DNA from: a virus
Taxonomy: Duplodnaviria; Heunggongvirae; Uroviricota; Caudoviricetes
Length of the DNA: 16,856 bases
Strand: one strand, 5' to 3'
IMG/VR virus record: IMGVR_UViG_2516143027_000005
Span: 1-16,856 of that record
Shown: positions 1 through 13,963 of the stretch, piece after piece
Layout of the letters: each line of letters begins with the position of its first letter
Position numbering within the stretch: the first letter of the stretch is position 1
Notes under the pieces: model-generated
The model's input: only the letters and a program-made list of their open reading frames with translations
The model's database searches: none
Told to the model about the DNA's origin: nothing
Made by a program: the position numbers and the translations under genes

Positions 1-2
1 CT

Positions 3-389
3 CGTGGCAATAACTGTCCCCTTGCTGAAAATTTGTACCAACAAGGGAAAGACAAATCAGCTGATGGAGATACCAGAACGGATATCACCCGCATGGATGA
101 CAAGGAGTTGCACGATTACCTGCACAGTATGAGCAAAAAAGAGCGCCGGGAACTGGCAGCAAGGTTACGCCTGGTGAAACCGAAACGGCGTAAAGACTAC
201 AAACAGCGAATTACAGACCATCAGCGACTGCAGCTCGTGTATGAACTGAAGTCCAGGGGATTTGATGGCAGCGAGAAAGAGGTCGATTTACTGCTTCGCG
301 GCGGCAGTATTCCGTCAGGAGCAGGCCTACGTATCTTCTATCGGAACCAGCGTTTGCAGGAAGATGATAAGTGGCGAAACCTGTATTAA
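3..389 (+). CDS. hypothetical protein, probably 5-prime truncated by the window edge; basic K/R-rich region
   Basis: Frame is open from the first base of the window to a stop at 387-389. The ORF track starts it at a TTG (33-35). No motif recognised. Confidence 0.4.
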
Positions 390-483
390 TTACGCGGGTT
401 AACAATTCGTGCTCTTAATAATACCAGGTATATCAGGCTGATGAGCGTAAAAAAACGTTTTACATCAGTAAGATTATTATATA

Positions 484-499
484 CTGTAAATATAAACAG
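484..499. promoter_or_regulatory. LexA (SOS) box, CTGT-N8-ACAG
   Basis: Sequence ctgtaaatataaacag is a perfect match to the CTGT-N8-ACAG LexA consensus with an AT-rich centre. It lies about 45 bp upstream of the 542 ATG and overlaps candidate -35 (ttacat 460-465) and -10-like AT-rich hexamers. Confidence 0.65.
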
Positions 500-541
500 T
501 GGTTATGTGTACAGTATTGCTTTGGTGTCATAGGAGGAAAG

Positions 542-730
542 ATGCAGGACTATTTTTTGGAGTCTTTGAAGCTTCAGCGCATTGATTTTTTTCTTAAGCT
601 TGTAGCGGCTAGTGAGTGTAGTGATGAAGAGAAGGGGCTGGCCCTGCAGTGGGTTTCTGAACTGACAGATGAACTCATGGCAAAAATCAGAACTCACGAA
701 TACAACCGCTCAATGGATGTCATCAGCTGA
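542..730 (+). CDS. small hypothetical protein (62 aa), first gene of the LexA-controlled operon; possibly a Tum antirepressor N-terminal-domain analogue
   Basis: Strong RBS (aggagg at 530-535) before the ATG at 542; sits directly downstream of the LexA box. No recognisable motif. Confidence 0.55.
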   Translation: MQDYFLESLKLQRIDFFLKLVAASECSDEEKGLALQWVSELTDELMAKIRTHEYNRSMDVIS

Positions 731-740
731 GGTGACTTTT

Positions 741-974
741 ATGCGCATTGAAATAATGATCGATAAAGAGCAGAAGATTAGCCAGTCTACACTGGACGCC
801 CTTGAATCCGAGCTTTACCGCAATCTGCGCCCCCTGTATCCCAAAACGGTAATTCGTATCCGCAAAGGTAGCTCTAACGGTGTGGAACTGACCGGACTGC
901 AACTGGACGAAGAAAGAAAACAAGTGATGACAATTATGCAGAAGGTGTGGGAAGACGACAGCTGGCTGCATTAA
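741..974 (+). CDS. dinI: DinI-family protein (77 aa), prophage-encoded
   Basis: Starts MRIEI, contains DALESEL and ends KVWEDDSWLH, matching E. coli DinI (MRIEV...DALAGEL...ETWESADDWF) as I recall it. RBS gaggtg at 729-734. The ORF-track start at 669 overlaps the upstream gene and is less likely. Confidence 0.8.
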   Translation: MRIEIMIDKEQKISQSTLDALESELYRNLRPLYPKTVIRIRKGSSNGVELTGLQLDEERKQVMTIMQKVWEDDSWLH

Positions 975-1108
975 GAAACGTTGCTGGCGTCTGAACTTGT
1001 TTCTGGCGTCAGCAAGGTTGAACAACGAGCTGTGCGAGGCGTTAGCTCTGTAGTGCATGTCTATGCCGCATGAGATCGCATGATCGTTTGAGGATCGTTT
1101 TTGCTAAG

Positions 1109-1135
1109 GCCCGCCAGAACTGGCGGGCTTTTGCG
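1109..1135 (+). terminator. rho-independent terminator of the SOS operon
   Basis: GC-rich stem gcccgcca (1109-1116) / tggcgggc (1121-1128), loop gaac, followed by tttt. Confidence 0.6.
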
Positions 1136-1177
1136 TAGATCATGCAGGTGCATGAAAACCACTACATAAAGCGGGCA

Positions 1178-1196
1178 GGCGTGGCGGGGATACGAG
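1178..1196. other. candidate cos (cohesive end) site
   Basis: ggcgtggcggggatacgag followed by cgcgcgctg. This resembles the P2 left end as I remember it (GGCGAGGCGGGGAAAGCAC then TGCGCGCTG): 14 of 19 positions plus the shared flank. Confidence 0.45.
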
Positions 1197-1212
1197 CGCG
1201 CGCTGTGCGTGG

Positions 1213-1241
1213 TTGTAAAAGGAAATTGTTTTCGGTATAAC
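1213..1241 (+). promoter_or_regulatory. putative sigma70 promoter for the island 1 genes
   Basis: ttgtaa (1213-1218), 17-nt spacer, tataac (1236-1241), about 24 bp upstream of the 1265 ATG. Confidence 0.3.
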
Positions 1242-1264
1242 CACTTCCATTAGAAGGAGAACTT

Positions 1265-1510
1265 ATGAAAATTTTTGCAATAGTCATTACATGTATACTG
1301 GCATTGATTGCAGGATTATGGCTTTACATGGATCCTGGTTTTGATTCTATTGTTGCATTTTTGGCTGCAGTTAGCGCTTTAGCTGGATTACTTATCACTA
1401 CAAAAAATAAATATAATTCTATGAGTCAATCAGTTGGTGATAATTCAATTGGTGTCCAGGCTGGCGGTGATATTAAAATTGATTGTATAAATACAGGTGA
1501 TAAAAAATAA
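1265..1510 (+). CDS. small membrane protein (81 aa) with two predicted transmembrane helices
   Basis: RBS aggaga 7 nt before the ATG. Hydrophobic stretches IFAIVITCILALIAGLWLY and IVAFLAAVSALAGLLITT, then a polar C-terminal tail. AT-rich codons. Confidence 0.6.
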   Translation: MKIFAIVITCILALIAGLWLYMDPGFDSIVAFLAAVSALAGLLITTKNKYNSMSQSVGDNSIGVQAGGDIKIDCINTGDKK

Positions 1511-1519
1511 GGAGGATAT

Positions 1520-2377
1520 ATGTTTAGTGATAAACAAAAGCAACAAATAGGTAATAATTCGTATGCAATTCAAGCTGGAAATAATGTAAATGTTTCAGGG
1601 ATGTCGTTTTCCGAGGTTAGAGAACTATTCAACATTCTCTTCGAAAATCAGTTCCCAAAATTGAAAGATGTTGCTTATGCTGCAGCTCAAGAGAATGCAA
1701 AAGATTTTGAAGAGCGTGTCGTTTCGGATTTAACAAAAAACGTTGATAGATTGATTATTGATAAATTTTGCGATCCGGACGTTCAGGCTACATTGACTGA
1801 GGCATTAAAGTCATCAGCCAGAAAGGGAAAGAAAGCTAATATGGATGTGCTTTCTCAGTTGTTAGTTGAACGAGTCTCCAATAACAATGACGATTTTAGA
1901 GATATAGTCTTAACGGAGGCAGTTACTGTCGTTCCAAAGTTAACACAGCAACAAATATCACTTATAACGATAGTTTTTCTTCTCAAGAATGTTGAGATCA
2001 AAGATCCTGTTAATGGTGTTCGATTGGATTTGTTGGAGCACAATTTTAGAAATTTTGAACCAATGTATACTAATGGGTTTAATTTGTCTCAAGCCCAGAT
2101 ATATCACATTCAATATGCAGGGGCTTGTTCATGGAATACTTTTTTAGGGATAGATGTTGAAGACTATTTCATGGATAAATATCCGACTGATATAAAAGAT
2201 AAGAGTGCGTATATTTCAAATCTTAAGTTAGTTGCCCCTCATGTGTCTGCATTTTTAGAAAATTTTTCAAAGAGCAACTATCAAGGAATTGAACTAACAA
2301 GTGTAGGGCAAGCAATTGCTCTAGCCGTTATTTCAAGATACGTAGGAAGATTGGATTATAATATTTGGTTAAAATAG
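1520..2377 (+). CDS. hypothetical protein (285 aa), unknown function; candidate effector partnered with the upstream membrane protein
   Basis: RBS aggagg before the ATG at 1520, 9 bp after the upstream stop, so an operon arrangement. No Walker A or other motif recognised. Followed by a terminator. Confidence 0.6.
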   Translation: MFSDKQKQQIGNNSYAIQAGNNVNVSGMSFSEVRELFNILFENQFPKLKDVAYAAAQENAKDFEERVVSDLTKNVDRLIIDKFCDPDVQATLTEALKSSARKGKKANMDVLSQLLVERVSNNNDDFRDIVLTEAVTVVPKLTQQQISLITIVFLLKNVEIKDPVNGVRLDLLEHNFRNFEPMYTNGFNLSQAQIYHIQYAGACSWNTFLGIDVEDYFMDKYPTDIKDKSAYISNLKLVAPHVSAFLENFSKSNYQGIELTSVGQAIALAVISRYVGRLDYNIWLK

Positions 2378-2400
2378 GGCAGTATCTGCCCTATTTTATT
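2376..2400. terminator. bidirectional terminator hairpin between convergent genes (285-aa ORF and Q)
   Basis: Stem agggcag (2376-2382) / ctgccct (2386-2392), loop tat, with T-rich tracts on both strands. Confidence 0.55.
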
Positions 2401-3427
2401 ATAATTCATATGGTAGGAAAGAGATTATTTCATCACTCAACCATTCATTAATTTCTTTGATTCGCTTTTGCAGCGGTATCAACTCGTTGCGGACAAAAAC
2501 CTTACTAGCTTTCTCCACATCCCCAAAACCCCCAACATTATTAGGCATAATCCCCATCATTTGCGGCGGCACGCGGTGTGCCGCCATCATGTCATCCCGG
2601 CTCACGTTCTTGATATTCAGAAACTCATCCTTCGCCGCGACCTCTGACAACGGGATGATCTGAAGCCCGTCCTTTTTGCCGTTAGGCGAGTACATAAACA
2701 GGTTGCGGAAGTTGCCAGGGCCTTTGGCGCTTTTCATCGCATTGCGGAGGTTGTTCACATCCTCCTGGTTCTGCGCAGCGTCGGTCATGTACATGATGAA
2801 GCCAGCATGACTGCCGTTAATGTAATACTTTCGACGGAACAGCGTGGCGGACTCATTGAGCAGGGCGGACGGAATGGCAGAAAGATAGCCGGGCAGGCCG
2901 TAGATCTCCTGGTTAATGTCCGGTTCCATCAGATGAAAAATGCTGCCTTTCGTGAACTGATACGGCTGGGTTGTCATACCGTATTGCACAAACCAGTAGG
3001 TATCCAGGTCTAACCCGCGTCGGGTGTATTTTGCCAGAGCAGGCTCAAGGGCGATAACTTCACCGAAGCGGTTCGTGCGTTTCTCCAGGTAGGCGTTACC
3101 AAATACCAGATAGTCCTGCACAAAACGGGTAAATGCCTGCTGGCTGAGCAGCGGGTGGGGGATGTAGGTACTGGTCAGAATGTTGCACTTTACTGCAATC
3201 GGGGAACTGTGATGCACGGCAGCGCGGAAGGTGCGCGCCAGTCCGTCAAAGCTGACGGGTGGTTCATACCAACGGTCCATCTGTACGCATTCCACATAGT
3301 CCAGCAGTTCACGGCGGTCCAGAACCGGAACGGGATCGCCGAAGCTGAATGCTTCGGCTGAAGTCTGGTTTTTATGCTGGATCTGATTCATCGCCGCTGC
3401 GCGGTTTTTCTTACTCTTTCCCATCAA
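2399..3427 (-). CDS. Q: portal protein (P2 gpQ-like)
   Basis: 342-aa ORF directly downstream of the terminase gene on the minus strand with an ATGA start/stop overlap. Size and position match P2 Q. Confidence 0.85.
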   Translation of the reverse strand: MMGKSKKNRAAAMNQIQHKNQTSAEAFSFGDPVPVLDRRELLDYVECVQMDRWYEPPVSFDGLARTFRAAVHHSSPIAVKCNILTSTYIPHPLLSQQAFTRFVQDYLVFGNAYLEKRTNRFGEVIALEPALAKYTRRGLDLDTYWFVQYGMTTQPYQFTKGSIFHLMEPDINQEIYGLPGYLSAIPSALLNESATLFRRKYYINGSHAGFIMYMTDAAQNQEDVNNLRNAMKSAKGPGNFRNLFMYSPNGKKDGLQIIPLSEVAAKDEFLNIKNVSRDDMMAAHRVPPQMMGIMPNNVGGFGDVEKASKVFVRNELIPLQKRIKEINEWLSDEIISFLPYEL

Positions 3428-5190
3428 AAAATCTCCACAATATTGCTGGTATTGGCAGACTCGCCCTGCAGCGGTTCGTTAAACAGTGCGTGCATCGTTG
3501 CCCAGGCCAGATCGGCATGGCTGGCTTCTTCGCTGCGGCTGGCTTCATAGGTCGGGCGGTTGCCGCTGGCGGTGGTGGCGCGACGGATTGCCATGAATGA
3601 CTGCGCAATGTCGGTGTGCCCGGCGTCAAACTCCAGACGGCGGTGGCTGATAATGTCGTAGGCCTTGAGTACCAGGGCGTTTTTAACATTGGGGTTGTAG
3701 ACAAACTCCCGGACGGCAGGAAAGAACGCTTTCACGTTCTCATAAACCCCGTGACCAACGCCGGTTGAGTCGATACCGATATAGGTCACGTTGTACTGTT
3801 CGGTCAGTTTTTTGATGGCGTCAGCCTGGGCGCGGAAGTCCATCCCGCGCCACTGGTGACGCTCAAGAATGCGGAACTTACCACCAGGCACGGCTGGCGG
3901 TGCCACCACCACGCATCCGGCGCTGTCGCCGTTTTGCGTACCTTTTGCCGGGTCATAACCGATCCACACTTCGCGCCAGCCAAACGGGCGCAGAGCCAGT
4001 GCATGAAAGTCGGTCCAGACTTCCCAGCTGTCCACCATGCACGCCTGCAGCTCGCTGAGCGGAAATACGGACGCGAGATCGTCCACAAACTCGCACATCA
4101 GCAGGTTCTGGTATTCGTCCGGGCTGTACTCCATGCGCAACTGGTCAAGGTCGAACAGGTTACAGCCGCCGCGCACCGCATCTTCCACGGTGACTATCTG
4201 GCGGTATTGCCCGTCTGCGCACAGCAGGCCGGGGGCCAGATTGCTGTGGGACAGGTCGATGTCCACCTTGTCGGCCTTGTTGCGCCCACGGTTGAACAGC
4301 GCACCGGACCAGAACGGATAAGCACTGTGTGTCAGGCTGGATGGCGTGGAAAAATAGGTTTGTCGCCATTTTTTGTGAATAGCCATACCGGAAGCCACTT
4401 TGCGCAGCTCCTGGAATTTCGGTATCCAGAAATATTCATCCAGATACAGGTTGCCGTGATAACTCTGGGCCGTGCGGGCATTGGTGCCGAGGAAGTAAAG
4501 CGTGGCCCCGTTAGGAAGCACCATCGGATCGCCTTTCAACTCCACCCCCACTTCTTTGGCGAAGTCGATGATGTACTGCTTAAAGACGTGGGCCTGTGCC
4601 TTGCTGGCGGAAAGGAAAATCTGGTTACGTCCGGTAAGCAGGGCGTCAATCAGGGCTTCACGGGCAAAGTAAAAGGTCGCGCCGATCTGGCGTGACTTCA
4701 GCAGGTTGCGGATGCGGTTGGTTTTTCCGGCTTCCCACCAGTGGCGCTGGTAGTTGAACATGGAGGAATGGAAGATTTCTTCCAGCTTCTCAATCTGTTC
4801 ATCGGTGAAAACGTTCTTTTCCGGCTGACGGCGCGGGCCTTTGTTACGGTTGGCGACGTTAGGGTTTAAGTCGGCTTCGTTGCCGCCATTGTTAAACTTG
4901 CCGATCCGCGCGTGGCGTTCCGACTGGTGCGCCAGCAGGTCAATCTCTTTGAAATCTTTCCCTTCTTTGTGCTCCTTCATAATGAGCTGGCAGTAGCGTG
5001 CGGCGGTGGTGAGCTGCATCTGATCCAGCGGCCCATAGTCACCCCACTTGTCGCGTTTTTTCCAGCTGTGAACGGTTGCAACTTTCTCGCCCAGCATTTC
5101 AGCAATGCGGGCGACGCGGTATCCCTGAAAGTACAGCAGCATGGCCTGCCGACGGGGATCGAGATCTGCGGGTGTCAGTGTGGTGTTCAT
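3424..5190 (-). CDS. P: terminase large (ATPase) subunit (P2 gpP-like)
   Basis: 588-aa ORF divergent from the O gene. Size and position match P2 P. Confidence 0.85.
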   Translation of the reverse strand: MNTTLTPADLDPRRQAMLLYFQGYRVARIAEMLGEKVATVHSWKKRDKWGDYGPLDQMQLTTAARYCQLIMKEHKEGKDFKEIDLLAHQSERHARIGKFNNGGNEADLNPNVANRNKGPRRQPEKNVFTDEQIEKLEEIFHSSMFNYQRHWWEAGKTNRIRNLLKSRQIGATFYFAREALIDALLTGRNQIFLSASKAQAHVFKQYIIDFAKEVGVELKGDPMVLPNGATLYFLGTNARTAQSYHGNLYLDEYFWIPKFQELRKVASGMAIHKKWRQTYFSTPSSLTHSAYPFWSGALFNRGRNKADKVDIDLSHSNLAPGLLCADGQYRQIVTVEDAVRGGCNLFDLDQLRMEYSPDEYQNLLMCEFVDDLASVFPLSELQACMVDSWEVWTDFHALALRPFGWREVWIGYDPAKGTQNGDSAGCVVVAPPAVPGGKFRILERHQWRGMDFRAQADAIKKLTEQYNVTYIGIDSTGVGHGVYENVKAFFPAVREFVYNPNVKNALVLKAYDIISHRRLEFDAGHTDIAQSFMAIRRATTASGNRPTYEASRSEEASHADLAWATMHALFNEPLQGESANTSNIVEIF

Positions 5191-5236
5191 GGCACAAACC
5201 TACAGCCTTGAATGAAGGCTTTCCCCGCCTGCGGTT

Positions 5237-5254
5237 TGTGTGGTTGTCGGTACA
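5237..5254. promoter_or_regulatory. candidate Ogr-type late activator site (TGT-N12-ACA) in the P/O divergent region
   Basis: tgtgtggttgtcggtaca lies in the 142-bp gap between the P start (5190) and O start (5333). The motif is short enough to occur by chance. Confidence 0.3.
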
Positions 5255-5332
5255 AATACCGCGCATTGTTTCACTGCCCCCATCACCGCAACCATAAGGC
5301 TCCAGTAAGTTTTTTCTAACGGAGCACGGCTC

Positions 5333-6166
5333 ATGACAGTGAAAGCAAAGCGTTTTCGCATCGGGGTGGAAGGTGCCACTACCGACGGACGCGGAATCCA
5401 GCGTGAATGGCTGGAACAGATGGCAGCCAGCTACAACCCGGCGGTGTATACCGCGCTGATTAACCTTGAGCACATCAAGTCTTATCTGCCGGACAGCACC
5501 TTTAACCGCTACGGCAAGGTGACGGCGCTGTTTGCTGAAGAAATCACGGAGGGTCCGCTGGCGGGCAAGATGGCACTGTATGCCGACGTTGAGCCAACGG
5601 AGTCCCTGGTGGAACTGGTGAAAAAAGGCCAGAAATTATTCACCTCTATGGAAGTCAGCCCGAAGTTTGCTGATACGGGCAAAGCCTACCTGGTCGGCCT
5701 GGCTGCCACTGATGACCCAGCCAGTCTGGGTACGGAAATGCTGACATTCAGCGCCAGCGCAGCCCATAACCCGCTGGCAAACCGCAAGCAGAATCCCGCC
5801 AATCTCTTTACCGCCGCAGAGGAAACGGTGATCGAACTGGAAGAAATCCAGGATGACAAACCGTCCCTGTTTGCCCGTGTCACGGCGCTGTTTACAAAAA
5901 AAGAGCAGTCCGACGATGCCCGGTTTTCTGATGTGCATAAGGCCGTGGAACTGGTCGCCACTGAGCAGCAAAACCTGAGTGTGCGCACCGAAAAATCCCT
6001 TTCTGAGCAGGAAGAACGTCTGTCTGAGCTGGAGACAGTTCTGCAGGCACAACAGGCCGCCTTTAACGAACTGGTGGACAAGCTGAGCCATGAAGACAGC
6101 CGCCAGGACTACCGCCAGCGTGCAACGGGCGGTAACGCCCCCGCTGACACTCTGACCAATTGCTGA
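5333..6166 (+). CDS. O: capsid scaffolding protein (P2 gpO-like)
   Basis: 277-aa ORF, first rightward late gene, RBS ggag upstream. Position and size match P2 O. Confidence 0.85.
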   Translation: MTVKAKRFRIGVEGATTDGRGIQREWLEQMAASYNPAVYTALINLEHIKSYLPDSTFNRYGKVTALFAEEITEGPLAGKMALYADVEPTESLVELVKKGQKLFTSMEVSPKFADTGKAYLVGLAATDDPASLGTEMLTFSASAAHNPLANRKQNPANLFTAAEETVIELEEIQDDKPSLFARVTALFTKKEQSDDARFSDVHKAVELVATEQQNLSVRTEKSLSEQEERLSELETVLQAQQAAFNELVDKLSHEDSRQDYRQRATGGNAPADTLTNC

Positions 6167-6182
6167 TGGAGCACAAAACCTG

Positions 6183-7241
6183 ATGAAGAAGAATACCCGC
6201 TTTGCTTTTAACGCTTACCTGCAGCAGCTGGCGCGTCTGAACGGTGTGGCAGTTGAAGAACTGTCCAGCAAGTTCACCGTGGAGCCGTCTGTACAGCAGA
6301 CGCTGGAAGACCAGATCCAGCAGTCCGCCGCTTTCCTGACGCTGATTAACGTCACGCCAGTGACTGAGCAGTCCGGTCAGCTGCTGGGGCTGGGTGTTGG
6401 CAGCACCATTGCCGGAACCACTGACACCACCGCGAAAGAGCGTGAACCTGTCGATCCGACGCTGATGGTCGATGTGGAATACAAATGCGAACAGACCAAC
6501 TTTGACACAGTGCTGACCTACGCGAAGCTGGACCTGTGGGCGAAGTTTCAGGATTTCCAGGTGCGTATCCGTAACGCCATCGTGAAACGTCAGGCACTGG
6601 ACCGCATCATGATCGGCTTTAACGGCGTGAAGCGTGCGAAAACCTCCAACCGCAGCGAAAACCCGCTGCTGCAGGATGTGAACAAAGGCTGGTTGCAGAA
6701 AATCCGTGAGGATGCACCGGATCACGTCATGGGCAGCACCACCACGGGCGGTGAAACCACACCGGGTGCGGTGAAAGTCGGGAAAGGTGGCGAATATGCC
6801 AACCTGGACGCCGTGGTGATGGATGCCGTTAACGAGCTTATCGACGTGGTCTATCAGGACGATGACGATCTGGTTGTGATTTGCGGTCGTGAACTGCTGT
6901 CTGACAAGTATTTCCCGCTGGTCAACAAAGAGCAGGAAAACAGTGAAAAACTGGCTGCCGATATGATCATCAGTCAGAAACGCATGGGTGGCCTGCAGGC
7001 CGTGCGTGCGCCGTTCTTCCCGCCGAATGCGCTGCTGATCACCCGTTTGGATAACTTGTCCATCTACTGGCAGGAAGACACCCGCCGCCGTTCAGTTATC
7101 GACAACCCGAAACGTGACCGGATTGAAAATTTTGAATCCGTTAACGAAGCCTACGTGGTTGAGGACTACCGCTGCGCCGCACTGGTGGAAAACATCCAGA
7201 TTGGCGACTTCAGCGCCGCCGCAGCAGAAGCCGGAGCGTAA
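6183..7241 (+). CDS. N: major capsid protein (P2 gpN-like)
   Basis: Long stretches match remembered P2 gpN (RFAFNAYL, KFTVEPSV, QDFQVRIRNAIVKRQ, IGFNGVKRA, KYFPLVNKEQENSE, LSIYWQED). Confidence 0.9.
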   Translation: MKKNTRFAFNAYLQQLARLNGVAVEELSSKFTVEPSVQQTLEDQIQQSAAFLTLINVTPVTEQSGQLLGLGVGSTIAGTTDTTAKEREPVDPTLMVDVEYKCEQTNFDTVLTYAKLDLWAKFQDFQVRIRNAIVKRQALDRIMIGFNGVKRAKTSNRSENPLLQDVNKGWLQKIREDAPDHVMGSTTTGGETTPGAVKVGKGGEYANLDAVVMDAVNELIDVVYQDDDDLVVICGRELLSDKYFPLVNKEQENSEKLAADMIISQKRMGGLQAVRAPFFPPNALLITRLDNLSIYWQEDTRRRSVIDNPKRDRIENFESVNEAYVVEDYRCAALVENIQIGDFSAAAAEAGA

Positions 7242-7244
7242 ACC

Positions 7245-7895
7245 ATGAGCCTGAGTCCCGCACGGCAGCATCGCCTGCGCGTTCAGGCTGAACAGGCCGC
7301 CCGCGAAGGCGGCAGCGTTCGCCACGCGTCGGGCTATGACCTGATGCTGCTGCAACTGGCGGAGGACCGCCGCCGTCTCAAGGGCGTTCAGTCCACGGTG
7401 AAAAAAGCGGAAATAAAGGTGGAGCTGCTGCCGAAATATGCCGCCTGGGCGGAGGGCGTCCTGGCTGCCGGAGGCGCTCAACAGGATGACGTGCTGATGT
7501 ACGTGATGCTGTGGCGCATTGATGCCGGAGATTATGCCGGGGCGCTGGAGATCGGGCGTCATGCCCTGCGTCATGGCTGGGTGATGCCGCTGGGTAACCG
7601 CAACGTGCAGACCGTGCTGGCAGAGGAAATGGCAGATGCAGCGCAGAGCGCAATGCTTGCCGCCACCGGCTTTGATGCCGATCTGTTGCTGCAGACGCTG
7701 GAGCTGACAGACGGTCTGGATATGCCGGACCAGTCACGGGCGCGTCTGCATAAAGCGATTGGCGCTGTCCTGAGTGAAAGCAATCCGGCTTCCGCCCTTA
7801 ATCATCTCAACCATGCGTTACAGCTCGATCCCCGCTGTGGCGTGAAAAAAGACAAACAGCAGCTGGAGCGCAGACTGCGCAATGACAGCCGCTGA
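7245..7895 (+). CDS. M: terminase small / endonuclease subunit (P2 gpM-like)
   Basis: 216 aa; segments DDVLMYVMLWRIDAGDYAGALEIGRHAL and LELTDGLDMPD resemble P2 gpM. Immediately follows N. Confidence 0.85.
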   Translation: MSLSPARQHRLRVQAEQAAREGGSVRHASGYDLMLLQLAEDRRRLKGVQSTVKKAEIKVELLPKYAAWAEGVLAAGGAQQDDVLMYVMLWRIDAGDYAGALEIGRHALRHGWVMPLGNRNVQTVLAEEMADAAQSAMLAATGFDADLLLQTLELTDGLDMPDQSRARLHKAIGAVLSESNPASALNHLNHALQLDPRCGVKKDKQQLERRLRNDSR

Positions 7896-7990
7896 CAGAA
7901 CGTGCCCCCGCGCACGGGCGGCACGGGGTGGCGAAAGGCACTGCCACATCAAAACCCCGTCCACCGCCCTCTATTTCAGGAGAAAGCAGC

Positions 7991-8455
7991 ATGAAGTTTG
8001 TTGCGCCAGAACAGGCACCGGAACAGGCGGAAATCATCAGGAATACGCCGTTCTGGCCTGATGTGGACCTGTCGGAGTTCCGCAGTGTGATGCGCACTGA
8101 CGGTACGGTGACGCAGCCGCGTTTAAAGCAGGTTGCGCTGTCGGCAATTTCGGAGGTCAACGCAGAGCTGTATGAGTTTCGCAGATGCCAGCAGATGCTG
8201 GGGTATGCCTCGCTGGCAGAGGTTCCGGCGGAACAGCTGGACGGGAAAAGTGAGCGCGTTCAGCACTATTTCAACGCGGTTTACTGCTGGGCACGCGCCA
8301 TGCTCAACGAACGTTACCAGGACTATGACGCCACGGCATCCGGTGTGAAGCGAGGCGAGGAACTGGCGGAAGCCAGCGGTGATTTGTGGCGTGACGCCCG
8401 CTGGGCCATCAGCCGGGTGCAGGACGCGCCGCACTGCACAGTGGAGCTTATCTGA
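7991..8455 (+). CDS. L: head completion / stabilisation protein (P2 gpL-like)
   Basis: Resembles remembered P2 gpL (FWPD.D, NAELYEF, DLWRD.RWA..R.Q). ATG at 7991 is chosen over the ORF-track start at 7928 because of the RBS aggaga just upstream. Confidence 0.75.
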   Translation: MKFVAPEQAPEQAEIIRNTPFWPDVDLSEFRSVMRTDGTVTQPRLKQVALSAISEVNAELYEFRRCQQMLGYASLAEVPAEQLDGKSERVQHYFNAVYCWARAMLNERYQDYDATASGVKRGEELAEASGDLWRDARWAISRVQDAPHCTVELI

Positions 8456-8658
8456 TGAAAGTGCGAGCGCATCAGTATGACACGGTGGATGCACTTTGCT
8501 GGCGTCATTACGGGCGTACACAGGGTGTCACGGAGCAGGTACTGAAGGCAAATCCGGGGCTTGTCGAATACGGCCCCTTTTTACCTCACGGACTGCAGGT
8601 GGAGCTGCCGGACATTCCGACAACCACCACCGTGCAGACCGTCCAGCTATGGGACTGA
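8455..8658 (+). CDS. X: tail protein X (P2 gpX-like)
   Basis: 67 aa; start overlaps the L stop; position and size match P2 X. Confidence 0.75.
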   Translation: MKVRAHQYDTVDALCWRHYGRTQGVTEQVLKANPGLVEYGPFLPHGLQVELPDIPTTTTVQTVQLWD

Positions 8659-8661
8659 ATT

Positions 8662-8877
8662 ATGACGCTTGAGCGAATCAGCGCCTTTATCACGTACTGC
8701 ATCGCCGTTGTGCTGGCCTGGCTGGGCGATTTGTCCATCAAGGATGCCTCAACGCTGGGCGGCCTGATGATTGGTGTGCTGATGCTGGCTATCAACTGGT
8801 ACTACAAACACAAAGCCTACCAGCTTCTGCGCGACGGGCAGATCTCGCGGGAGGACTATGAATCCATCAATCGTTAA
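8662..8877 (+). CDS. putative holin (71 aa membrane protein at the P2 Y position)
   Basis: Two hydrophobic segments and a charged C-terminus; sits immediately upstream of and overlapping the endolysin gene. Confidence 0.5.
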   Translation: MTLERISAFITYCIAVVLAWLGDLSIKDASTLGGLMIGVLMLAINWYYKHKAYQLLRDGQISREDYESINR

Positions 8878-9370
8878 ACGCTGTCTTGTCGGGGCCGTGC
8901 TGGCTATTGCTGCCACGCTGCCGGGTTTTCAGCAGCTTCACACCTCCGTGGAGGGACTGAAACTGATTGCCGATTACGAAGGCTGTCGTCTGCAGCCGTA
9001 TCAGTGCAGCGCGGGTGTATGGACTGACGGCATTGGTAATACGTCGGGCGTCATTCCCGGCAAAACCATTACGGAACGACAGGCAGCAGAAGGGCTTATC
9101 TCCAACGTGCTGCGTGTGGAGCGGTCACTGGAAAGGTGTGTGAAGCAACAGCCACCGCAGAAAGTGTATGACGCGGTGGTGTCATTTGCCTTCAACGTGG
9201 GGACAGGTAATGCCTGCAGCTCCACGCTGGTGAAATTACTCAATCAGCGGCGCTGGGCGGATGCGTGCCGACAGTTGCCGCGCTGGGTTTATGTGAAAGG
9301 TGTGTTTAATCAGGGGCTGGATAACCGCCGTGCGCGGGAGATGGCCTGGTGCTTACAGGGAGCAAACTGA
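8858..9370 (+). CDS. SAR-type endolysin (T4-lysozyme-like fold, resembling phage P21 R)
   Basis: N-terminal Gly/Ala-rich hydrophobic stretch (CLVGAVLAIAATLPG) followed by EG...Y......GVWTDG catalytic-triad spacing and a C-terminal LP/RRW region, like P21 R as I recall it. RBS gggagg. Confidence 0.8.
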   Translation: MNPSIVKRCLVGAVLAIAATLPGFQQLHTSVEGLKLIADYEGCRLQPYQCSAGVWTDGIGNTSGVIPGKTITERQAAEGLISNVLRVERSLERCVKQQPPQKVYDAVVSFAFNVGTGNACSSTLVKLLNQRRWADACRQLPRWVYVKGVFNQGLDNRRAREMAWCLQGAN

Positions 9371-9371
9371 A

Positions 9372-9749
9372 ATGAAAAAGAAATTAATCAGCGGGCTGTT
9401 TCTGATGTTATGGATGGCGCTGTTAATCGAAGCAATGGTGTATCCGCAGGGGATTTTTCCGGTACTGGCAGCGTCCGGCGTTTGGATAGCCTGTTTGCTG
9501 ACATGGGCGGTAATTCCGGTAGCACTGGCTGCGTTAATTAAGAATGGCCCGCTCTGGCAGGAGTTGAGGGCATCTTTGCTGAAGACAATTACCCGAAAAG
9601 AAAACGTATTTATCAGCTGGGTGATGCGATTGCTGATTGTCGTCAGTCTCGCCTGGACGGGGTGGGCTATTACCCTGGTCTTTTATCTGCTGACCGTTAT
9701 TGCTTTCTGGATCACCCGTAATCAGATGGCGCAACAGGTAGCAGCATGA
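9372..9749 (+). CDS. lysA: LysA-like multi-pass membrane protein (lysis accessory)
   Basis: 125 aa with about four hydrophobic segments, at the P2 lysA position. ATG at 9372 chosen over the ORF-track start at 9300, which overlaps K. Confidence 0.55.
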   Translation: MKKKLISGLFLMLWMALLIEAMVYPQGIFPVLAASGVWIACLLTWAVIPVALAALIKNGPLWQELRASLLKTITRKENVFISWVMRLLIVVSLAWTGWAITLVFYLLTVIAFWITRNQMAQQVAA

Positions 9750-10174
9750 ACCGGTTGCTGCTGGTTGTGCTGGCGTTATTACTGGCGGCGCTGGGCTGGC
9801 AGACGTGGCGGCTGGCTGATGCCAGCCAGACCATCAGCACGCAGGCAGACGAGCTACAGAGCAAAAGCCAGGCACTGGCAAAGAGCAACAGCCAGCTTAT
9901 CAGCCTGTCCATTCTGACTGAAACCAATAACCGGGAGCAGGCGCGGCTCTATGCCGAAGCAGAACAGACCAGTGTACTGCTGAGACAACGACAACGCCGG
10001 ATTGAGGAACTGAAACGTGAGAACGAGGATTTACGTCGCTGGGCTGATACTCCTTTGCCTGCTGACATTATCCGGCTGCGGGAACGTCCGGCACTCACCG
10101 GAGGTGCAGCTTACCGTCAGTGGTTGTCCGCGAGTGACGCCGTGTCGGCTGGAGCAGGCAGCGCCGCGCACTAA
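9746..10174 (+). CDS. lysB: i-spanin (Rz / LysB-like)
   Basis: N-terminal transmembrane segment, then a charged coiled-coil-like region; start overlaps the lysA stop. Confidence 0.7.
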   Translation: MNRLLLVVLALLLAALGWQTWRLADASQTISTQADELQSKSQALAKSNSQLISLSILTETNNREQARLYAEAEQTSVLLRQRQRRIEELKRENEDLRRWADTPLPADIIRLRERPALTGGAAYRQWLSASDAVSAGAGSAAH

Positions 10175-10307
10175 CGGTGATCTGAATGCGTTGCTGGATG
10201 AAACGGAGGCCGCCTGGGCGGTCTGTGCAGACAAAGTGGACATGATTATTGCGTGTCAGGAGCGAAACAGTGAACAAACCACAATCCCTGCGCCACGCTC
10301 TCAATAA
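10017..10307 (+). CDS. lysC: o-spanin lipoprotein (Rz1 / LysC-like), largely embedded in lysB in a different frame
   Basis: GTG start; signal peptide ending in the lipobox LTLSGC; Pro-rich mature region; typical overlapped spanin arrangement. Confidence 0.65.
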   Translation: MRTRIYVAGLILLCLLTLSGCGNVRHSPEVQLTVSGCPRVTPCRLEQAAPRTNGDLNALLDETEAAWAVCADKVDMIIACQERNSEQTTIPAPRSQ

Positions 10308-10701
10308 AGCGGTGCCTTATGTCCGCAATAACCCGGACAAACTGCATCTGTTTGTGGATAACGGTTCGCTGGTTGCCACGGGGGCCAGCTCCATGTCATG
10401 GGAGTACCGTTACACCCTCAACGTGGTGATTGAGGATTTCAGCGGCGACCAGAATCTGCTGATGGCCCCGGTTTTGCTGTGGCTGAGGGATAACCAGCCC
10501 GATGCCATCAATAACCCGGCGTTACGGGAAAAGCTATTCACCTTTGAGGTGGATATTCTGCGCAACGATGTCTGTGATATCAGCCTGAACCTGCAACTGA
10601 CGGAGCGTGTGCTGGTCAGCACTGACGGCAGTGTGTCGAGCGTTGAAGGTATAGCGGAACCTGATGCACCTGAAGAAATGTGGACGGTGAAACGTGGCTG
10701 A
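10270..10701 (+). CDS. R: tail completion protein R (P2 gpR-like)
   Basis: GTG at 10270 with RBS aggag 7 nt upstream, preferred to the TTG at 10249 used by the ORF track. Position after the lysis genes matches P2 R. Confidence 0.7.
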   Translation: MNKPQSLRHALNKAVPYVRNNPDKLHLFVDNGSLVATGASSMSWEYRYTLNVVIEDFSGDQNLLMAPVLLWLRDNQPDAINNPALREKLFTFEVDILRNDVCDISLNLQLTERVLVSTDGSVSSVEGIAEPDAPEEMWTVKRG

Positions 10702-11152
10702 ACTGCAGAAGGTGGACGACTGGCTGAGTGCCTTGCTGGCGAATCTGGAACCAGCCACGAGAAGCCGCATGATGCGCCAGCTGGCGCAGGAACTGCGCCG
10801 GACACAGCAGCAGAATATCAGGATGCAGCGCAACCCTGACGGCAGCAGCTATGAACCGCGACGGGTAACAGCACGCAGTAAAAAGGGGCGCATCAAACGT
10901 CAGATGTTTACAAAGCTGCGCACCACAAAATACCTGAAAACTGCCGCCAGCGCGGATACTGCCAGCGTACAGTTTGAAGGTAAGGTACAGCGCATTGCCC
11001 GCGTTCACCATTACGGCCTACGTGATCGCGTCAGCCGCAAAGGACCTGAGATCCGTTACGCAGAGAGAAAATTGCTTGGATTAAATGGATGTGAAAAATT
11101 AATTCGAAAAATATTCATTATGAATTTATTTTCTGGGGATTGGCTGGCATAA
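10694..11152 (+). CDS. S: tail completion protein S (P2 gpS-like) with an island-derived C-terminus
   Basis: GTG start overlapping the R stop. The conserved-looking core (RIARVHHYGLRDRV) is GC-rich; the last ~20 codons are AT-rich like island 2. Confidence 0.7.
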   Translation: MAELQKVDDWLSALLANLEPATRSRMMRQLAQELRRTQQQNIRMQRNPDGSSYEPRRVTARSKKGRIKRQMFTKLRTTKYLKTAASADTASVQFEGKVQRIARVHHYGLRDRVSRKGPEIRYAERKLLGLNGCEKLIRKIFIMNLFSGDWLA

Positions 11153-11173
11153 AAGCCAGCCTTTATTTTTTTT
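11142..11173 (+). terminator. rho-independent terminator after S
   Basis: Stem ggctggc (11142-11148) / gccagcc (11155-11161), loop ataaaa containing the S stop codon, then a T-run 11162-11173. Confidence 0.6.
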
Positions 11174-12029
11174 ATGTGATGGCCCCTATCTTTTGATTGT
11201 AATAACTATAATCAGCATGTTCTTCTGTATAAAAAATCTCAAATGCAGACAAGATGTTTGCGTAAAAACTATCCTTGGATATAGAGGTTTTTTTATTGAT
11301 GGATGCCAAAAAGTTTGTTATAAATCTTAATGATGCAGAGAAAAGAAAGTGCCCTTTCACCCAATGATTTATAGATGTATTTTCTGGGAATTGAATGTTG
11401 TTTTTTTCTGCTAAACCATTAGTAGTAAACGATTCAGGTAGTCTATTGATATATTCATCTATTTTTTTCTTGCATATATTGTATGAATTTCTTGATTGCA
11501 TAAAACGATCACAGGAATCACCAATTACGGAGCATCCTAATTTATTTAAATGATTGTGAATATCTAGTATTATTAAGTTCTCAATGTTGCTATAGAAGTT
11601 AGAAAGCCAATTTCCTACATCTATTTCCTGCATTTTTTTTGTGCAAAAACGGCCTGTGTTTTTGAGTATGTGTGATATGATTTTTTCATCAATGATTGTG
11701 TTTTCTATTGAATATCCCTTTGTGTAAATAATATTTGTATGCTTTACTATGTTGTCAGAAAAATGGTTTAGATCCGAATCTCTGGCAACTATGGCGTTTA
11801 TTTCTCCTGAGGTTATTTTTTCGATATATGGTTGTAAGGCTTCACATCCACCAACATCTTGAACTTCTACATTAAAACGACCATTTTTTTTAAAAATTAT
11901 TTCCCAAAAAGCAATGTCATCTTCACCTTCAACATAGACCATAATATCAGCATCATAAAATAAACTGATCACATTTTCCGCTTCATTAGACCAAGAAAAG
12001 TTTTCTGCATTAGAATCATTGATTAGCAT
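11172..12029 (-). CDS. ariB: TOPRIM-like (DUF4435-type) putative nuclease, AriB-like
   Basis: 285 aa. N-terminal VYVEGEDD (E34/E36) and ARDSD (D84-x-D86) give the Glu plus DxD spacing typical of TOPRIM/OLD-family nucleases. Start overlaps the upstream ATPase gene by 14 bp. Confidence 0.6.
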   Translation of the reverse strand: MLINDSNAENFSWSNEAENVISLFYDADIMVYVEGEDDIAFWEIIFKKNGRFNVEVQDVGGCEALQPYIEKITSGEINAIVARDSDLNHFSDNIVKHTNIIYTKGYSIENTIIDEKIISHILKNTGRFCTKKMQEIDVGNWLSNFYSNIENLIILDIHNHLNKLGCSVIGDSCDRFMQSRNSYNICKKKIDEYINRLPESFTTNGLAEKNNIQFPENTSINHWVKGHFLFSASLRFITNFLASINKKTSISKDSFYANILSAFEIFYTEEHADYSYYNQKIGAIT

Positions 12030-13272
12030 TGACTAATCTCTCCATATTGAAAATGGCGTTTTTATATTTAGATGCAACTTCAGGAGAATGGGTTGCAGCA
12101 ATAATTTGTGCATTAGGATTTAATTTTTTTATGGCAGGGATAATATTTCTTTGCCATTGAATATGTAAGGAAAGCTCAGGCTCATCAGTTAGGAAAATAT
12201 ATTGTTGCCCTCTTTGTAAGAGGGTCTCAATGAATAAAATTAGCAGTTGTTTTTCACCAGAAGATAAACTTTCTAAAACTATTGGCCCATAGGTGTTATT
12301 TATGACTAACAATCCCGATTGAAAATGAAATTCTTTATCGGTGATAAAATTTCTTAGTATGCTTAAGAATTGTTCTATTGGAGAAAATATTTTTGATGTT
12401 TTCTCTTTTGAAGTTAATGACATTTTGATTATTTTTTGTGTTTTTCTCAATGCTTCGATCGAACGAATATCAAAGCCTCTTTCACTTTTATTCTTTAATT
12501 CCGAAATGGTATTATTAATTGTTTCAACATGAAAGCTGATTTTTTTACGAATGTTTTGATCAATAGCATTTAACTGTGTGTATGCATTAAGGAGGTTTTG
12601 TTTTTCTTCCTCTTTGTTAAAGTTAATGTTGTAAGCAGGATTCTCCATATCTTCCTTGCTATAAAGTATTGATGCCAGAACCTCTTTTTGTAGTTCTAAT
12701 GCGATATCTCTGGCTTTCTGGGATAGTTCAAGTTGATATTTTGTAAGTTCCTGTATTAATTCTGATAACTTATAGTCAACAGGGTTGATAAAACGAGAGC
12801 CATATTTATCTTTAACTTCAAAATCATCACTATTTCTTAATCTGTAAACAGATAAAGAAGAAAGCGAGACTAGTTTTGCTAGTTCTGTTCTTAGTTCTTC
12901 TGTTTCATCATGCACTCTACGTCTATAACTAAGAGATATTCTTCTATCATCAGTGTTAAATAAACGAATTGTGTGTTTTTTAGATGAAAGCTGATATTCT
13001 ATTTTGGAAAATGGAGATGTATCGCTTTCAAGTTTTTTGACTTTGATTGTTTTTGTCTTTTTTTTATCTTTAAGTTTTATTTCGGCACTATTGAAATCAG
13101 CATTGTTAATACTGTCCAAATCAAGGGATAATATTGAGTGCAGAAGGTTCATAAAGGTTGTTTTACCCGTGCCATTTCGGCCTATAATAATGTTTACATC
13201 ATCATTAAATGAGCAGGAACAGTTTAATCGCTGCCAAAAGCCATTAATTGTGACGCTTTGAATTTTATACAT
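12016..13272 (-). CDS. ariA: ABC-type (AAA_15/AAA_21-like) ATPase, AriA-like
   Basis: 418 aa. Walker A GRNGTGKTT at residues 31-39, ABC signature-like LSSGEKQ, Walker B/D-loop IFLTDEPELSLH and H-loop ATHSPE near the C-terminus. RBS aagga before the ATG. Confidence 0.65.
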   Translation of the reverse strand: MYKIQSVTINGFWQRLNCSCSFNDDVNIIIGRNGTGKTTFMNLLHSILSLDLDSINNADFNSAEIKLKDKKKTKTIKVKKLESDTSPFSKIEYQLSSKKHTIRLFNTDDRRISLSYRRRVHDETEELRTELAKLVSLSSLSVYRLRNSDDFEVKDKYGSRFINPVDYKLSELIQELTKYQLELSQKARDIALELQKEVLASILYSKEDMENPAYNINFNKEEEKQNLLNAYTQLNAIDQNIRKKISFHVETINNTISELKNKSERGFDIRSIEALRKTQKIIKMSLTSKEKTSKIFSPIEQFLSILRNFITDKEFHFQSGLLVINNTYGPIVLESLSSGEKQLLILFIETLLQRGQQYIFLTDEPELSLHIQWQRNIIPAIKKLNPNAQIIAATHSPEVASKYKNAIFNMERLVNANQ

Positions 13273-13308
13273 CTATGTATCCTTTATTATTAGTTGAACT
13301 ACTTAAAT

Positions 13309-13338
13309 TTATAATCATTTGTGTCATCCTCAGTACAA
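13309..13338 (-). promoter_or_regulatory. putative sigma70 promoter for the island 2 operon (minus strand)
   Basis: On the minus strand: ttgtac, 18-nt spacer, ttataa, about 37 nt upstream of the ATG. Overlaps the TGT-N12-ACA dyad. Confidence 0.25.
13320..13337. promoter_or_regulatory. candidate Ogr-type late activator site (TGT-N12-ACA) upstream of V
   Basis: tgtgtcatcctcagtaca, about 50 bp upstream of the V start, where the P2 V-operon late promoter would be expected. Confidence 0.35.
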
Positions 13339-13384
13339 TTATGCCGTTTGGAAGATATTATTTCAAATGTTTAATATATACGGT

Positions 13385-13963
13385 ATGAACGCACAATTAA
13401 CCGAAATCATGCGCCTTATCACCAATCTGATCCGCACAGGTGTAGTTACCGAAGTGGACCGGGAGAACTGGCTTTGCCGGGTGAAAACGGGCGACCTTGA
13501 AACCAACTGGATCAGCTGGCTGACGCTGCGCGCGGGTAATGCCCGCACATGGTGGCGACCATCGGAAGGTGAGCAGGTGGTGGTGCTGAGTCTGGGAGGC
13601 AATCTGGAAACTGCCTTTGCGTTGCCCGCTGTCTATTCGAATCAGTTCGCGCCACCTTCGACGTCGGCGGACGCCTGCGTGACAGAACATCCTGACGGTG
13701 GCTGGTTTGAATACGAACCCGCCACCGGGCGCTGGTATGTCAGGGGCATCAAATCCATGGTCATTGAGGCTGCCGACAACATCACCCTGAAAACCAGTGA
13801 GTTTGTGCTGGAGGCTGACCGCACGCGTATTAACAGCGAAGTAGTGATCAATGGTGGCGTTACCCAGGGCGGCGGTGCAATGAGTTCTAACGGAATTGTG
13901 GTTGATGCACATCAGCATACTGGCGTCCTGAAAGGCGGCGATACAACCGGAGGCCCGGTATGA
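13385..13963 (+). CDS. V: baseplate spike / assembly protein V (P2 gpV-like)
   Basis: 192 aa. ATG at 13385 chosen over the ORF-track start at 13319, whose extra N-terminal codons lie in AT-rich island DNA. Confidence 0.75.
   Translation: MNAQLTEIMRLITNLIRTGVVTEVDRENWLCRVKTGDLETNWISWLTLRAGNARTWWRPSEGEQVVVLSLGGNLETAFALPAVYSNQFAPPSTSADACVTEHPDGGWFEYEPATGRWYVRGIKSMVIEAADNITLKTSEFVLEADRTRINSEVVINGGVTQGGGAMSSNGIVVDAHQHTGVLKGGDTTGGPV

Follow-up and report, generated by a model that had tools for sequence, protein, structure and literature searches.

A two-gene cassette in the cos-portal slot of a P2-like prophage encodes a candidate defense pair with a shared motif

Introduction

What does a small AT-rich cassette do when it sits between the cos site and the portal gene of a P2-like prophage? 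The question was raised by a stretch of tailed-phage DNA of 16,856 nucleotides (IMG/VR virus record IMGVR_UViG_2516143027_000005, positions 1 to 16,856), which is referred to here, at its full length, as the window. The cassette consists of two genes, orfA and orfB, equipped with ribosome-binding sites (RBSs) and closed by a terminator. A preliminary description of the window had proposed it to be a novel membrane-associated defense or exclusion module. Here, we report that the two proteins carry a common motif, that the pair is conserved as a unit and that relatives of orfB occur as fusions with candidate effector domains. With some reservation, we propose that orfA and orfB may be an abortive-infection-type defense pair in which a sensor is coupled to a membrane effector by co-assembly of the motif.

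Experiments support the slot between gpA and gpQ, beside cos, as a source of anti-phage systems (Rousset et al. 2022, PMC9122126; also PMC13586616), and P2 itself carries the exclusion genes old and tin there (PMC9122126). At their main defense locus, 19% of P2-like elements have only unknown genes, and a machine-learning antiviral signal was obtained for 15–32% of unknown P2 proteins (PMC13586616). When unknown cassettes from the analogous P4 locus were chosen at random, six out of eight protected against phages (PMC13586616). The cassette had been assigned to the variable A-to-Q locus, which often carries anti-phage genes; its cos and portal flanks confirm that assignment.

Results

orfA and orfB form a conserved unit

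Both open reading frames (ORFs) are present exactly where they were first placed. orfA (1265..1510, plus strand) encodes an 81-aa inner-membrane protein, and orfB (1520..2377, plus strand) encodes a 285-aa cytoplasmic protein that we propose to be a sensor or regulator. Loci for comparison were taken from genome, viral and metagenome collections and from contigs carrying individual homologues. In 67 loci, which hold 45 unique motif pairs, a small co-directional ORF was found directly 5' of the orfB homologue. This ORF always came first, encoded 64–92 aa with one or two transmembrane (TM) segments and was separated from orfB by −14 to +16 bp. The taxa named among these loci are Alpha-, Beta-, Gamma- and Deltaproteobacteria, Brocadiaceae/Kuenenia, Chlorobiaceae, Polaribacter and Bryobacterales. 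The two genes, which had been described as one operon, are therefore a conserved pair beyond the window. Comparison with the Salmonella copies showed purifying selection on both orfA and orfB, with a dN/dS of 0.22–0.28 from few substitutions. Spurious ORFs were rejected as an explanation on the basis of these ratios and the conservation across phyla.

The small partner is easily overlooked. In four of four Burkholderia records (L030–L033, positions 9753–9992), an intact, motif-bearing small membrane gene had been left uncalled, which indicates that automated annotation under-reports it. At some loci, a single orfA precedes two orfB paralogs in tandem, and both paralogs have a motif copy at their N-terminus. 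In L014, for example, orfA is followed by paralogs at 5075–5920 and 6001–6846, and the second paralog starts at 7021 in L011, at 2498 in L050 and near 2363 in L080–L083. This arrangement suggests that several sensors share one effector.

A motif is shared by the two proteins

A motif of about 22 aa occurs twice in the pair, once in the tail of orfA and once at the N-terminus of orfB. Its core, Q-x-Q-x-V...S-x-[G/A]-I-Q-A-G-[R/G]-[D/N]-[V/I]-x-[I/V], is conserved in both families. The copy on the putative effector side covers orfA aa 51–74 (1415..1486, plus strand; NSMSQSVGDNSIGVQAGGDIKIDC), and the copy on the putative sensor side covers orfB aa 4–27 (1529..1600, plus strand; DKQKQQIGNNSYAIQAGNNVNVSG). 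Comparison of orfA 51–72 with orfB 4–25 gave a BLASTP E-value of 4e-4 and a p-value of 5e-5 in a composition-preserving shuffle. A hidden Markov model (HMM) built from the first 32 residues of the orfB homologues matched 40 out of 40 orfA-family members. Q55, G63, Q65, A66 and G67 are invariant on the orfA side, as are Q8, A16, Q18, A19 and G27 on the orfB side (34 diverse homologues). Both copies lacked secondary structure in the AlphaFold monomers, and the predicted local distance difference test score (pLDDT) of the orfB-side copy was below 50.

The two copies were also found to co-vary between partners. Identity was 0.403 within pairs and 0.375 between pairs (permutation p = 4e-4), and none of 50,000 permutations exceeded the BLOSUM score. 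The residue after QAG agreed in 82% of pairs compared to 45% expected (R/R in 21, G/G in 15 and mismatched in 8). Residual co-variation was detected when permutation was confined to the R or G class (p = 0.024). Since the motif pairs are phylogenetically related, these p-values overstate the independence of the observations. In composition, the motif was enriched in Q (3.1x), G (1.95x) and N (1.94x) and strongly depleted in L (0.12x) and P (0.03x), with I at 1.3x, V at 1.1x and K at 1.25x. A literature text search for IQAGRD, IQAGGD, GIQAG and similar strings found them in no relevant paper. "QAG" is likewise absent from the text of Dyrka 2020, where the logos of the bacterial amyloid signaling sequence (BASS) motifs are figures.

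Relatives of orfB carry other effectors

Fusions of the orfB domain bear on what the pair might do. N-terminal extensions were found in representatives of several independent clusters (P0216, P0231, P0258, P0259, P0260 and P0246), and the five that were read contain an HNH domain; P0259 was judged from its length and match offset alone, and P0246 is N-terminally truncated. The Cys/His/Asn ligands of the HNH domain are invariant in the four full-length sequences that were aligned. The HNH profile matched the SPARHA HNH effector 9om4 at 7e-15 and the "SAVED domain-containing" chains 7rwk, 7rwm and 8ysq at 1e-8 to 1e-9. We take these three chains to be CBASS Cap5. The HNH domains of SPARHA and Cap5 are closely related and are activated by oligomerization (PMC12738770).

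In P0181, P0224 and P0253, a TM segment is fused directly to the domain. The cis-fusions of either kind, HNH or TM, keep a single and sometimes degenerate motif copy between effector and domain. Neither of the two HNH-fused loci examined had an upstream gene in the same direction, and none of the frames there held an ORF resembling orfA. A sensor or regulator that controls an effector would be expected to show just this pattern, in which the C-terminal domain stays constant while cell-damaging partners are exchanged at the N-terminus. Two other relatives, P0201 (aa 1–140) and P0256 (aa 1–110), have a helical N-terminal domain of about 100–140 aa followed by a Q/N-rich linker, with no TM segment or HNH domain. 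These N-terminal domains had no Pfam match and could be a third effector type.

Families and predicted structures

orfB matched the NCBIfam model NF045477, "LPO_1073/Vpar_1526 family protein", with 246 bits against a cut-off of 45, and its aa 27–284 cover model positions 1–257 of 257. Pfam PF28206 is precomputed on orfB and all its homologues, and RefSeq names the identical gene as a member of the LPO_1073/Vpar_1526 family. In our scans, orfB gave no Pfam match above the cut-off, and its only strong PHROG match was its own family, phrog_19542. NF045477, PF28206 and phrog_19542 are all catalogued without an assigned function. An exhaustive profile search returned 2,346 representatives (clusters at 50% identity) at E <= 1e-3, of which 1,631 were at E <= 1e-10. 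The AlphaFold2 model of orfB is all-alpha, with a pLDDT of 82, a predicted template modeling score (pTM) of 0.78 and residues 1–24 disordered; it had no fold match in the PDB or the viral library. Neither Walker, HNH nor TOPRIM motifs were found in orfB by Pfam and PADLOC scans, nor was an NTPase, repeat or PIN domain.

The claim that orfB has no recognizable motif therefore stands for Walker, HNH and TOPRIM, but the motif it shares with orfA had been overlooked. Similarly, the pair was rightly called uncharacterized in that no function is assigned to it anywhere, although its families were already catalogued in NF045477, PF28206 and PHROGs. Homology and fold searches returned only these function-less families and no solved counterpart. 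A structural or packaging role in the phage was rejected: Pfam, PHROG, PDB and viral fold searches found no homology of sequence or fold to such a protein, and the pair also occurs outside phages. Sub-threshold matches to T4 Cef (E 0.007 and 0.0012), CBM64, SLATT_1 (E 0.05), a CBASS 2TM effector (E 0.027) and PDB histone H4 (E 1.6) were judged to be noise or, at most, local helical resemblance. The accessions of the pair are absent from the supplements of Rousset 2022 that are in text form, and the new systems of PMC13586616 bear no resemblance to it.

orfA matched its own PHROG family, phrog_27656, at 1e-56, and this family also has no assigned function. The orfA family comprised 385 matches. 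All are small standalone proteins (74–114 aa in the listed entries), and none has a meaningful Pfam domain. AlphaFold2, run with a 40-sequence alignment, predicted helices at residues 2–22 and 26–43 with a pLDDT of about 90, as anticipated from the two hydrophobic stretches, and a disordered tail with a pLDDT of about 50. The hairpin has a conserved W19 and a P-G-F-D-S loop, and is followed by a basic patch and then the disordered tail. K2, the acidic P-G-F-D-S loop and the K-rich segment after the second TM helix suggest an N-in/C-in topology, with the tail then lying on the cytoplasmic side. PADLOC yielded only hydrophobic chance matches for orfA at E 0.02–0.03 (CARF_TM and 2TM effector). 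A holin/antiholin pair was also considered and rejected, as the best holin PHROG reached only E 0.095 and the structural/lysis block, which starts on the far side of Q and P, does not include the gene. Related prophages keep a holin and a lysozyme in that block.

Layout and expression signals of the cassette

The cassette differs from its surroundings in composition and appears to have its own expression signals, largely as first reported. G+C is 0.30–0.37 over 1201–2400 compared to 0.50–0.63 in the flanking Q/P backbone (portal and terminase genes), which agrees with the AT-richness noted before. The RBSs, read from the sequence, are AAGGAG (1254..1259, plus strand), 5 nt ahead of the ATG of orfA, and AAGGAGG (1509..1515, plus strand), 4 nt ahead of the ATG of orfB and overlapping the orfA stop codon. 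The near-consensus sites and the spacing of 9 nt between the genes (1511–1519) were thus confirmed. The promoter-like element fared less well. A sigma-70-like candidate with TTGTAA (1213–1218), a 17-nt spacer and TATAAC (1236–1241) matches 9 of 12 consensus positions by eye (1213..1241, plus strand), but it is weak, and a consensus promoter scan reported no site 5' of orfA. The scan passed over it because T is absent at the last −10 position.

The hairpin facing the portal gene was verified as a bidirectional intrinsic terminator at 2370..2398, with a 13-bp stem, a 3-nt loop and T-rich flanks on both sides. It separates the convergent orfB and Q genes and forms the right boundary of the cargo. 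Three terminator-like sites were found compared to 1.0 expected in shuffles. At 1508–1522, orfA and orfB were seen to be in the same reading frame with only TAA-GGA-GGA-TAT between them, so that read-through of the stop would give an A-B fusion. This is probably a coincidence because the gaps in relatives (−14 to +16 bp) do not keep the frame relation.

The P2 slot and the rest of the prophage

The left boundary of the cargo is a P2-type cos segment at 1150..1212 (no strand assigned). Positions 1150–1204 are 100% identical to a feature of phage Cartapus annotated as "putative cos site, homologous to the cos of P2 phage". On the right, the portal gene Q lies at 2399–3427 on the minus strand (PF04860). 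This cos segment matched about 1,257 of 5,426 complete E. coli genomes, and the intact pair was present in only 6, so the locus is common but this cargo is rare. Many Salmonella contigs, and also IMG/VR viral contigs, carry the same pair, with orfB 98% identical. Three orfB lineages, mutually 40–42% identical, each lie about 0.9 kb from a P2-type portal gene: the window/Salmonella type, that of Klebsiella variicola (L025/L026) and that of a viral contig (L046). The co-occurrence of the pair at one prophage locus, which had been suggested as a check, is thereby seen in three diverged lineages, and this implies that P2-like phages captured the module there more than once.

Two E. coli prophages illustrate changes at this slot. 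In L040 (NZ_LT883142), positions ~4834–5126, beside a P2-like portal gene, match window positions 2295–2420 at 93.7% identity. Only the last ~80 bp of orfB and the terminator are kept, and the prophage has different cargo and an IS5-family insertion. The remnant resembles a scar left behind when a cassette at the hotspot was replaced. In L001 (PEC422; coordinates of interest 3916–5685 and 7250–8275), the cassette is 99.9% identical, and two extra hypothetical genes (~288 and 217 aa) lie between the DinI-like gene and cos. Such genes on the DinI side of cos make the hotspot two-sided. The portal gene of L001 is annotated as a pseudogene with an internal stop, and this prophage may be defective.

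Three genes are seen in the window on the 5' side of cos: the replication gene gpA, represented by its 3' end, a small phrog_698 gene (542–730, 62 aa) and a DinI-like gene (741–974; PF06183, 1e-22). The latter two are conserved companions of gpA in related prophages, and a short G+C dip (0.335) was seen near 400–600, ahead of the phrog_698 gene. A second AT-rich island at ~11.1–13.3 kb (G+C 0.30–0.32), between tail genes, encodes the PARIS system. AriA (12016–13272, minus strand, 418 aa) was identified by PADLOC at 2e-38 and by AAA_15, and AriB (11172–12029, minus strand, 285 aa), which overlaps AriA, by PADLOC at 2e-21 and by DUF4435 at 1.7e-26. The AT-rich cargo of this prophage thus includes a known defense system.

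Neighbors outside P2-like phages

Away from P2-like phages, the pair was found in varied company. In Comamonas, it adjoins a pair made up of a reverse transcriptase and an AAA_15/AAA_23 ATPase. In Vibrio, it lies in an island with an integrase, a NERD protein, a transposase and a group II intron. A qualitative census of 120 neighboring ORFs at 20 non-P2 loci included IetA/IetS, a type I restriction-modification specificity subunit, Cas1e and GmrSD. Cytosine methylases, WYL proteins, two PDC candidates, integrases and conjugation or type IV secretion system genes were also among these neighbors.

Discussion

How the pair may work

The anatomy of the shared motif, together with the precedent of Bab/Agp, leads to an explanation that we favor, though tentatively, in which orfB is the sensor and orfA the effector of an abortive-infection-type defense pair. 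orfB would be a cytoplasmic sensor or regulator built on the Vpar_1526/LPO_1073 fold, with its Q/N/G-rich segment of ~22 residues unstructured at rest. orfA would be a constitutively membrane-inserted hairpin whose cytoplasmic tail presents the second copy of the motif. Upon an infection cue, orfB may self-associate through its N-terminal motif, and the tail motifs of orfA may join the same beta-type assembly. This joining would be homotypic and possibly an amyloid-like templating as in Bab/Agp and HET-S/NWD2. The clustered TM hairpins could then permeabilize or depolarize the inner membrane, and phage production would stop. In the relatives fused to a TM or HNH effector, only one motif copy is present, and the separate small gene is missing at the two HNH-fused loci examined. 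The HNH-fused relatives also lend support to activation by oligomerization. The defense phenotype, the roles of sensor and executor, oligomerization, membrane damage and amyloid character are the parts of this explanation that we infer.

The immune role has indirect support from the HNH fusions, the defense-gene neighbors, the three lineages in the P2 slot and the presence of PARIS in the same prophage. The record of validated defense systems in this slot and the recovery of the namesake Vpar_1526 in envelope fractions also speak for it. The two genes would form a self-contained, horizontally mobile conflict module in the cargo of the P2 cos/gpQ hotspot, with abortive infection as its most likely role. 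The preliminary proposal of a novel membrane-associated defense or exclusion module thus survives in part. The pair is conserved hotspot cargo for which PADLOC has no model, but its family had been catalogued, and defense is something that we infer.

Comparison with known systems

Signaling through a shared motif has been described for amyloid-forming pairs. As far as the literature searched shows, Bab/Agp is, to our knowledge, the only bacterial example with experimental support. In amyloid signaling pairs generally, the effector carries at its C-terminus a motif of ~25 aa that recurs at the N-terminus of the receptor, and the genes are adjacent and collinear, typically <=10 bp apart or overlapping, with the effector first (Dyrka et al. 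2020). The motifs are rich in Q, N, G, V and I, poor in K, P and L, and have beta propensity (Dyrka et al. 2020). Bab/Agp is a pair with a BASS11 motif from a prophage hotspot of E. coli ECOR25 (bioRxiv 10.1101/2024.11.07.622273). Phage T5 elicits an Agp-dependent assembly of the shared motif and, in turn, a Bab-dependent abortive infection; proline substitutions in either motif copy abolish defense (10.1101/2024.11.07.622273).

The pair in the window has much in common with these systems. As in Bab/Agp, the Bell/NLR BASS pairs and HET-S/NWD2, the motif lies at the C-terminus of an upstream membrane protein and at the N-terminus of the downstream protein (67 loci). Like BASS pairs, the genes are adjacent and co-directional, at a distance of 9 bp here and −14 to +16 bp in relatives. 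The location in a prophage defense hotspot, a motif predicted to be unstructured in the monomer and the existence of fused "all-in-one" relatives are further likenesses to Bab/Agp. In contrast to Bab and Bell, orfA is a two-TM hairpin of ~45 residues (aa 2–43) with no helical bundle. Its N-terminus, MKIFAIV, differs from the "MEPIS" helix of Babybell, and it has no match to a Bell or HeLo domain. Unlike the NLR or TPR-GreA/B-C-PIN receptors, orfB consists of a single Vpar_1526 domain. Unlike in BASS pairs, the cis-fused relatives of orfB retain the motif and K is not depleted. In its shared motif and gene arrangement, the pair resembles the Bell/NLR and Bab/Agp families, but by effector fold and receptor architecture it is no member of either.

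Other comparisons concern the effectors and the locus. The N-terminal HNH domain of orfB relatives belongs to the same clade as those of Cap5 and SPARHA, and, as in CBASS, one sensor platform occurs with two kinds of effector, membrane and nuclease. In contrast to CBASS and SPARHA, orfB of the window has no HNH domain, and no CD-NTase, SAVED or Argonaute protein is encoded between cos and the portal gene; the Vpar_1526 domain is also unrelated to SAVED or APAZ. With P2 old/tin, Rst_DUF4238, Rst_3HP, Rst_DprA-PRTase and AC1 TIR+TM, the cassette shares a slot by cos, a small size, AT-richness and its own expression signals. It differs from the validated P2-hotspot cassettes in having no sequence relationship to them (no significant PADLOC match for either protein). 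The NF045477 and PF28206 entries describe a single protein, and the small membrane partner, the motif and the HNH and TM fusions are absent from their names and from the literature found. The pairing, the shared motif and the effector swaps are new here and undescribed as far as the available literature shows. On the predicted models, orfB would be a new sensor fold and orfA a new effector.

Evidence against a defense role and against amyloid signaling

Several observations weigh against the proposed explanation. In Burkholderia, the genes around the small islet that holds the pair are metabolic, and the neighbor census, being qualitative, includes many housekeeping genes. orfB had no match at E <= 1 in PADLOC-DB v2, which includes Rst_*, PARIS, PD-* and PDC candidates. 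The searchable literature held no paper on LPO_1073, PF28206 or the RefSeq accessions and no phenotype for a family member. The co-variation of the motif copies is dominated by one position and two clades, and shared ancestry could inflate it. A motif kept in cis-fusions suggests an integral N-terminal element of the domain and not a dedicated templating signal. An A-B fusion with two tandem motifs, P0235, was first taken as a Rosetta-stone fusion. It was downgraded to a possible indel artefact because it is a singleton on a 2.5-kb contig and its closest relatives are unfused. As for amyloid signaling, K is not depleted in the motif, unlike in published BASS motifs. orfA is a pre-inserted TM hairpin and not a latent pore former of the Bell/HeLo type, and orfB has neither NLR nor TPR architecture.

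By analogy with the known pairs, the assembly might be a true amyloid, which we consider doubtful. We are similarly doubtful that the pair represents a second, structurally unrelated family of bacterial amyloid-type immune signaling. In such a minimal system of 81 and 285 aa, the new fold of orfB would nucleate a Q/N/G-rich cross-beta assembly, and this would recruit and activate the pre-inserted hairpin.

Other explanations

A toxin-antitoxin (TA) or addiction module seems unlikely. Here, orfA would be a small membrane toxin of the Hok, TisB or GhoT type that orfB neutralizes via the motif, and the module would stabilize its prophage or island, with defense as a secondary effect. A small hydrophobic protein tightly coupled to a larger partner is in line with this, but a toxin-first order with a much larger "antitoxin" would be atypical. 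The HNH-fused relatives resemble a toxin and a regulatory domain in one chain; however, their HNH domains belong to the Cap5/SPARHA clade that is used by sensor-controlled immune effectors. The autonomy of the module and its mobility in unrelated contexts would suit an addiction system, as would the toxicity of Bab/Agp co-expression. Its location, on the other hand, is a phage defense hotspot, and one orfA with two tandem orfB genes fits a shared effector better than 1:1 neutralization. Many TA systems are themselves defense systems, so this explanation overlaps with that of an abortive-infection pair.

Another possible explanation, to which we give little credence, is a non-suicidal superinfection exclusion. 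orfA would anchor orfB by beta-strand pairing, and orfB would keep the DNA of incoming phages from entering or stop them at an early step, as exclusion proteins of the Sie or Imm type do. The combination of a membrane and a cytoplasmic protein in the slot of P2 old and tin is compatible with this, as is a weak winged-helix-like substructure in the orfB model that could bind nucleic acid. Vpar_1526, a namesake of the family, is expressed and was recovered in envelope fractions of Veillonella parvula (a proteome table that is its sole mention in the literature searched). Against exclusion, the module has spread well beyond prophages and is found in chromosomal islets across many phyla, and the ability of a Cap5/SPARHA-type HNH domain to replace the membrane protein suggests that the latter is an effector and not an anchor. 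Nor would a simple tether need a motif that is conserved and co-varies in both partners across phyla. We give equally little credence to a non-defense role, in which orfB would be a DNA-binding or regulatory protein held at or freed from the membrane by orfA and acting in lysogenic conversion, on host or prophage genes or in envelope physiology. Profile searches brought no helix-turn-helix family to significance, Foldseek found no regulator, and an HNH nuclease fusion would be hard to square with a transcription factor. The module is also mobile and patchily distributed, and P2-like phages have captured it repeatedly and independently.

Significance

If the pair proves not to act in defense, two proteins that share a motif would be an unexplained and widespread piece of membrane biology. 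If the amyloid reading holds, prion-like signaling would be a general, modular coupling device that is interchangeable with HNH or TM fusion. It would then not be a specialty of the NLR/Bell pairs of filamentous bacteria and would be widespread in unicellular Proteobacteria and many other phyla.

If the abortive-infection explanation is true, the idea that short homotypic beta-motifs, whether amyloid-like or otherwise, are a common wiring between sensors and effectors in bacterial immunity would become directly testable. The motif can be mutated, swapped between lineages of the R and G class or replaced by a fusion, for which there are natural precedents. A function in defense would also be given to an orphan family of ~2,300 representatives and to its small partner (385 matches), which gene callers sometimes miss. 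For the P2-like prophages of Salmonella, E. coli and Klebsiella, the cassette would be a very compact sensor/effector module of 1.1 kb.

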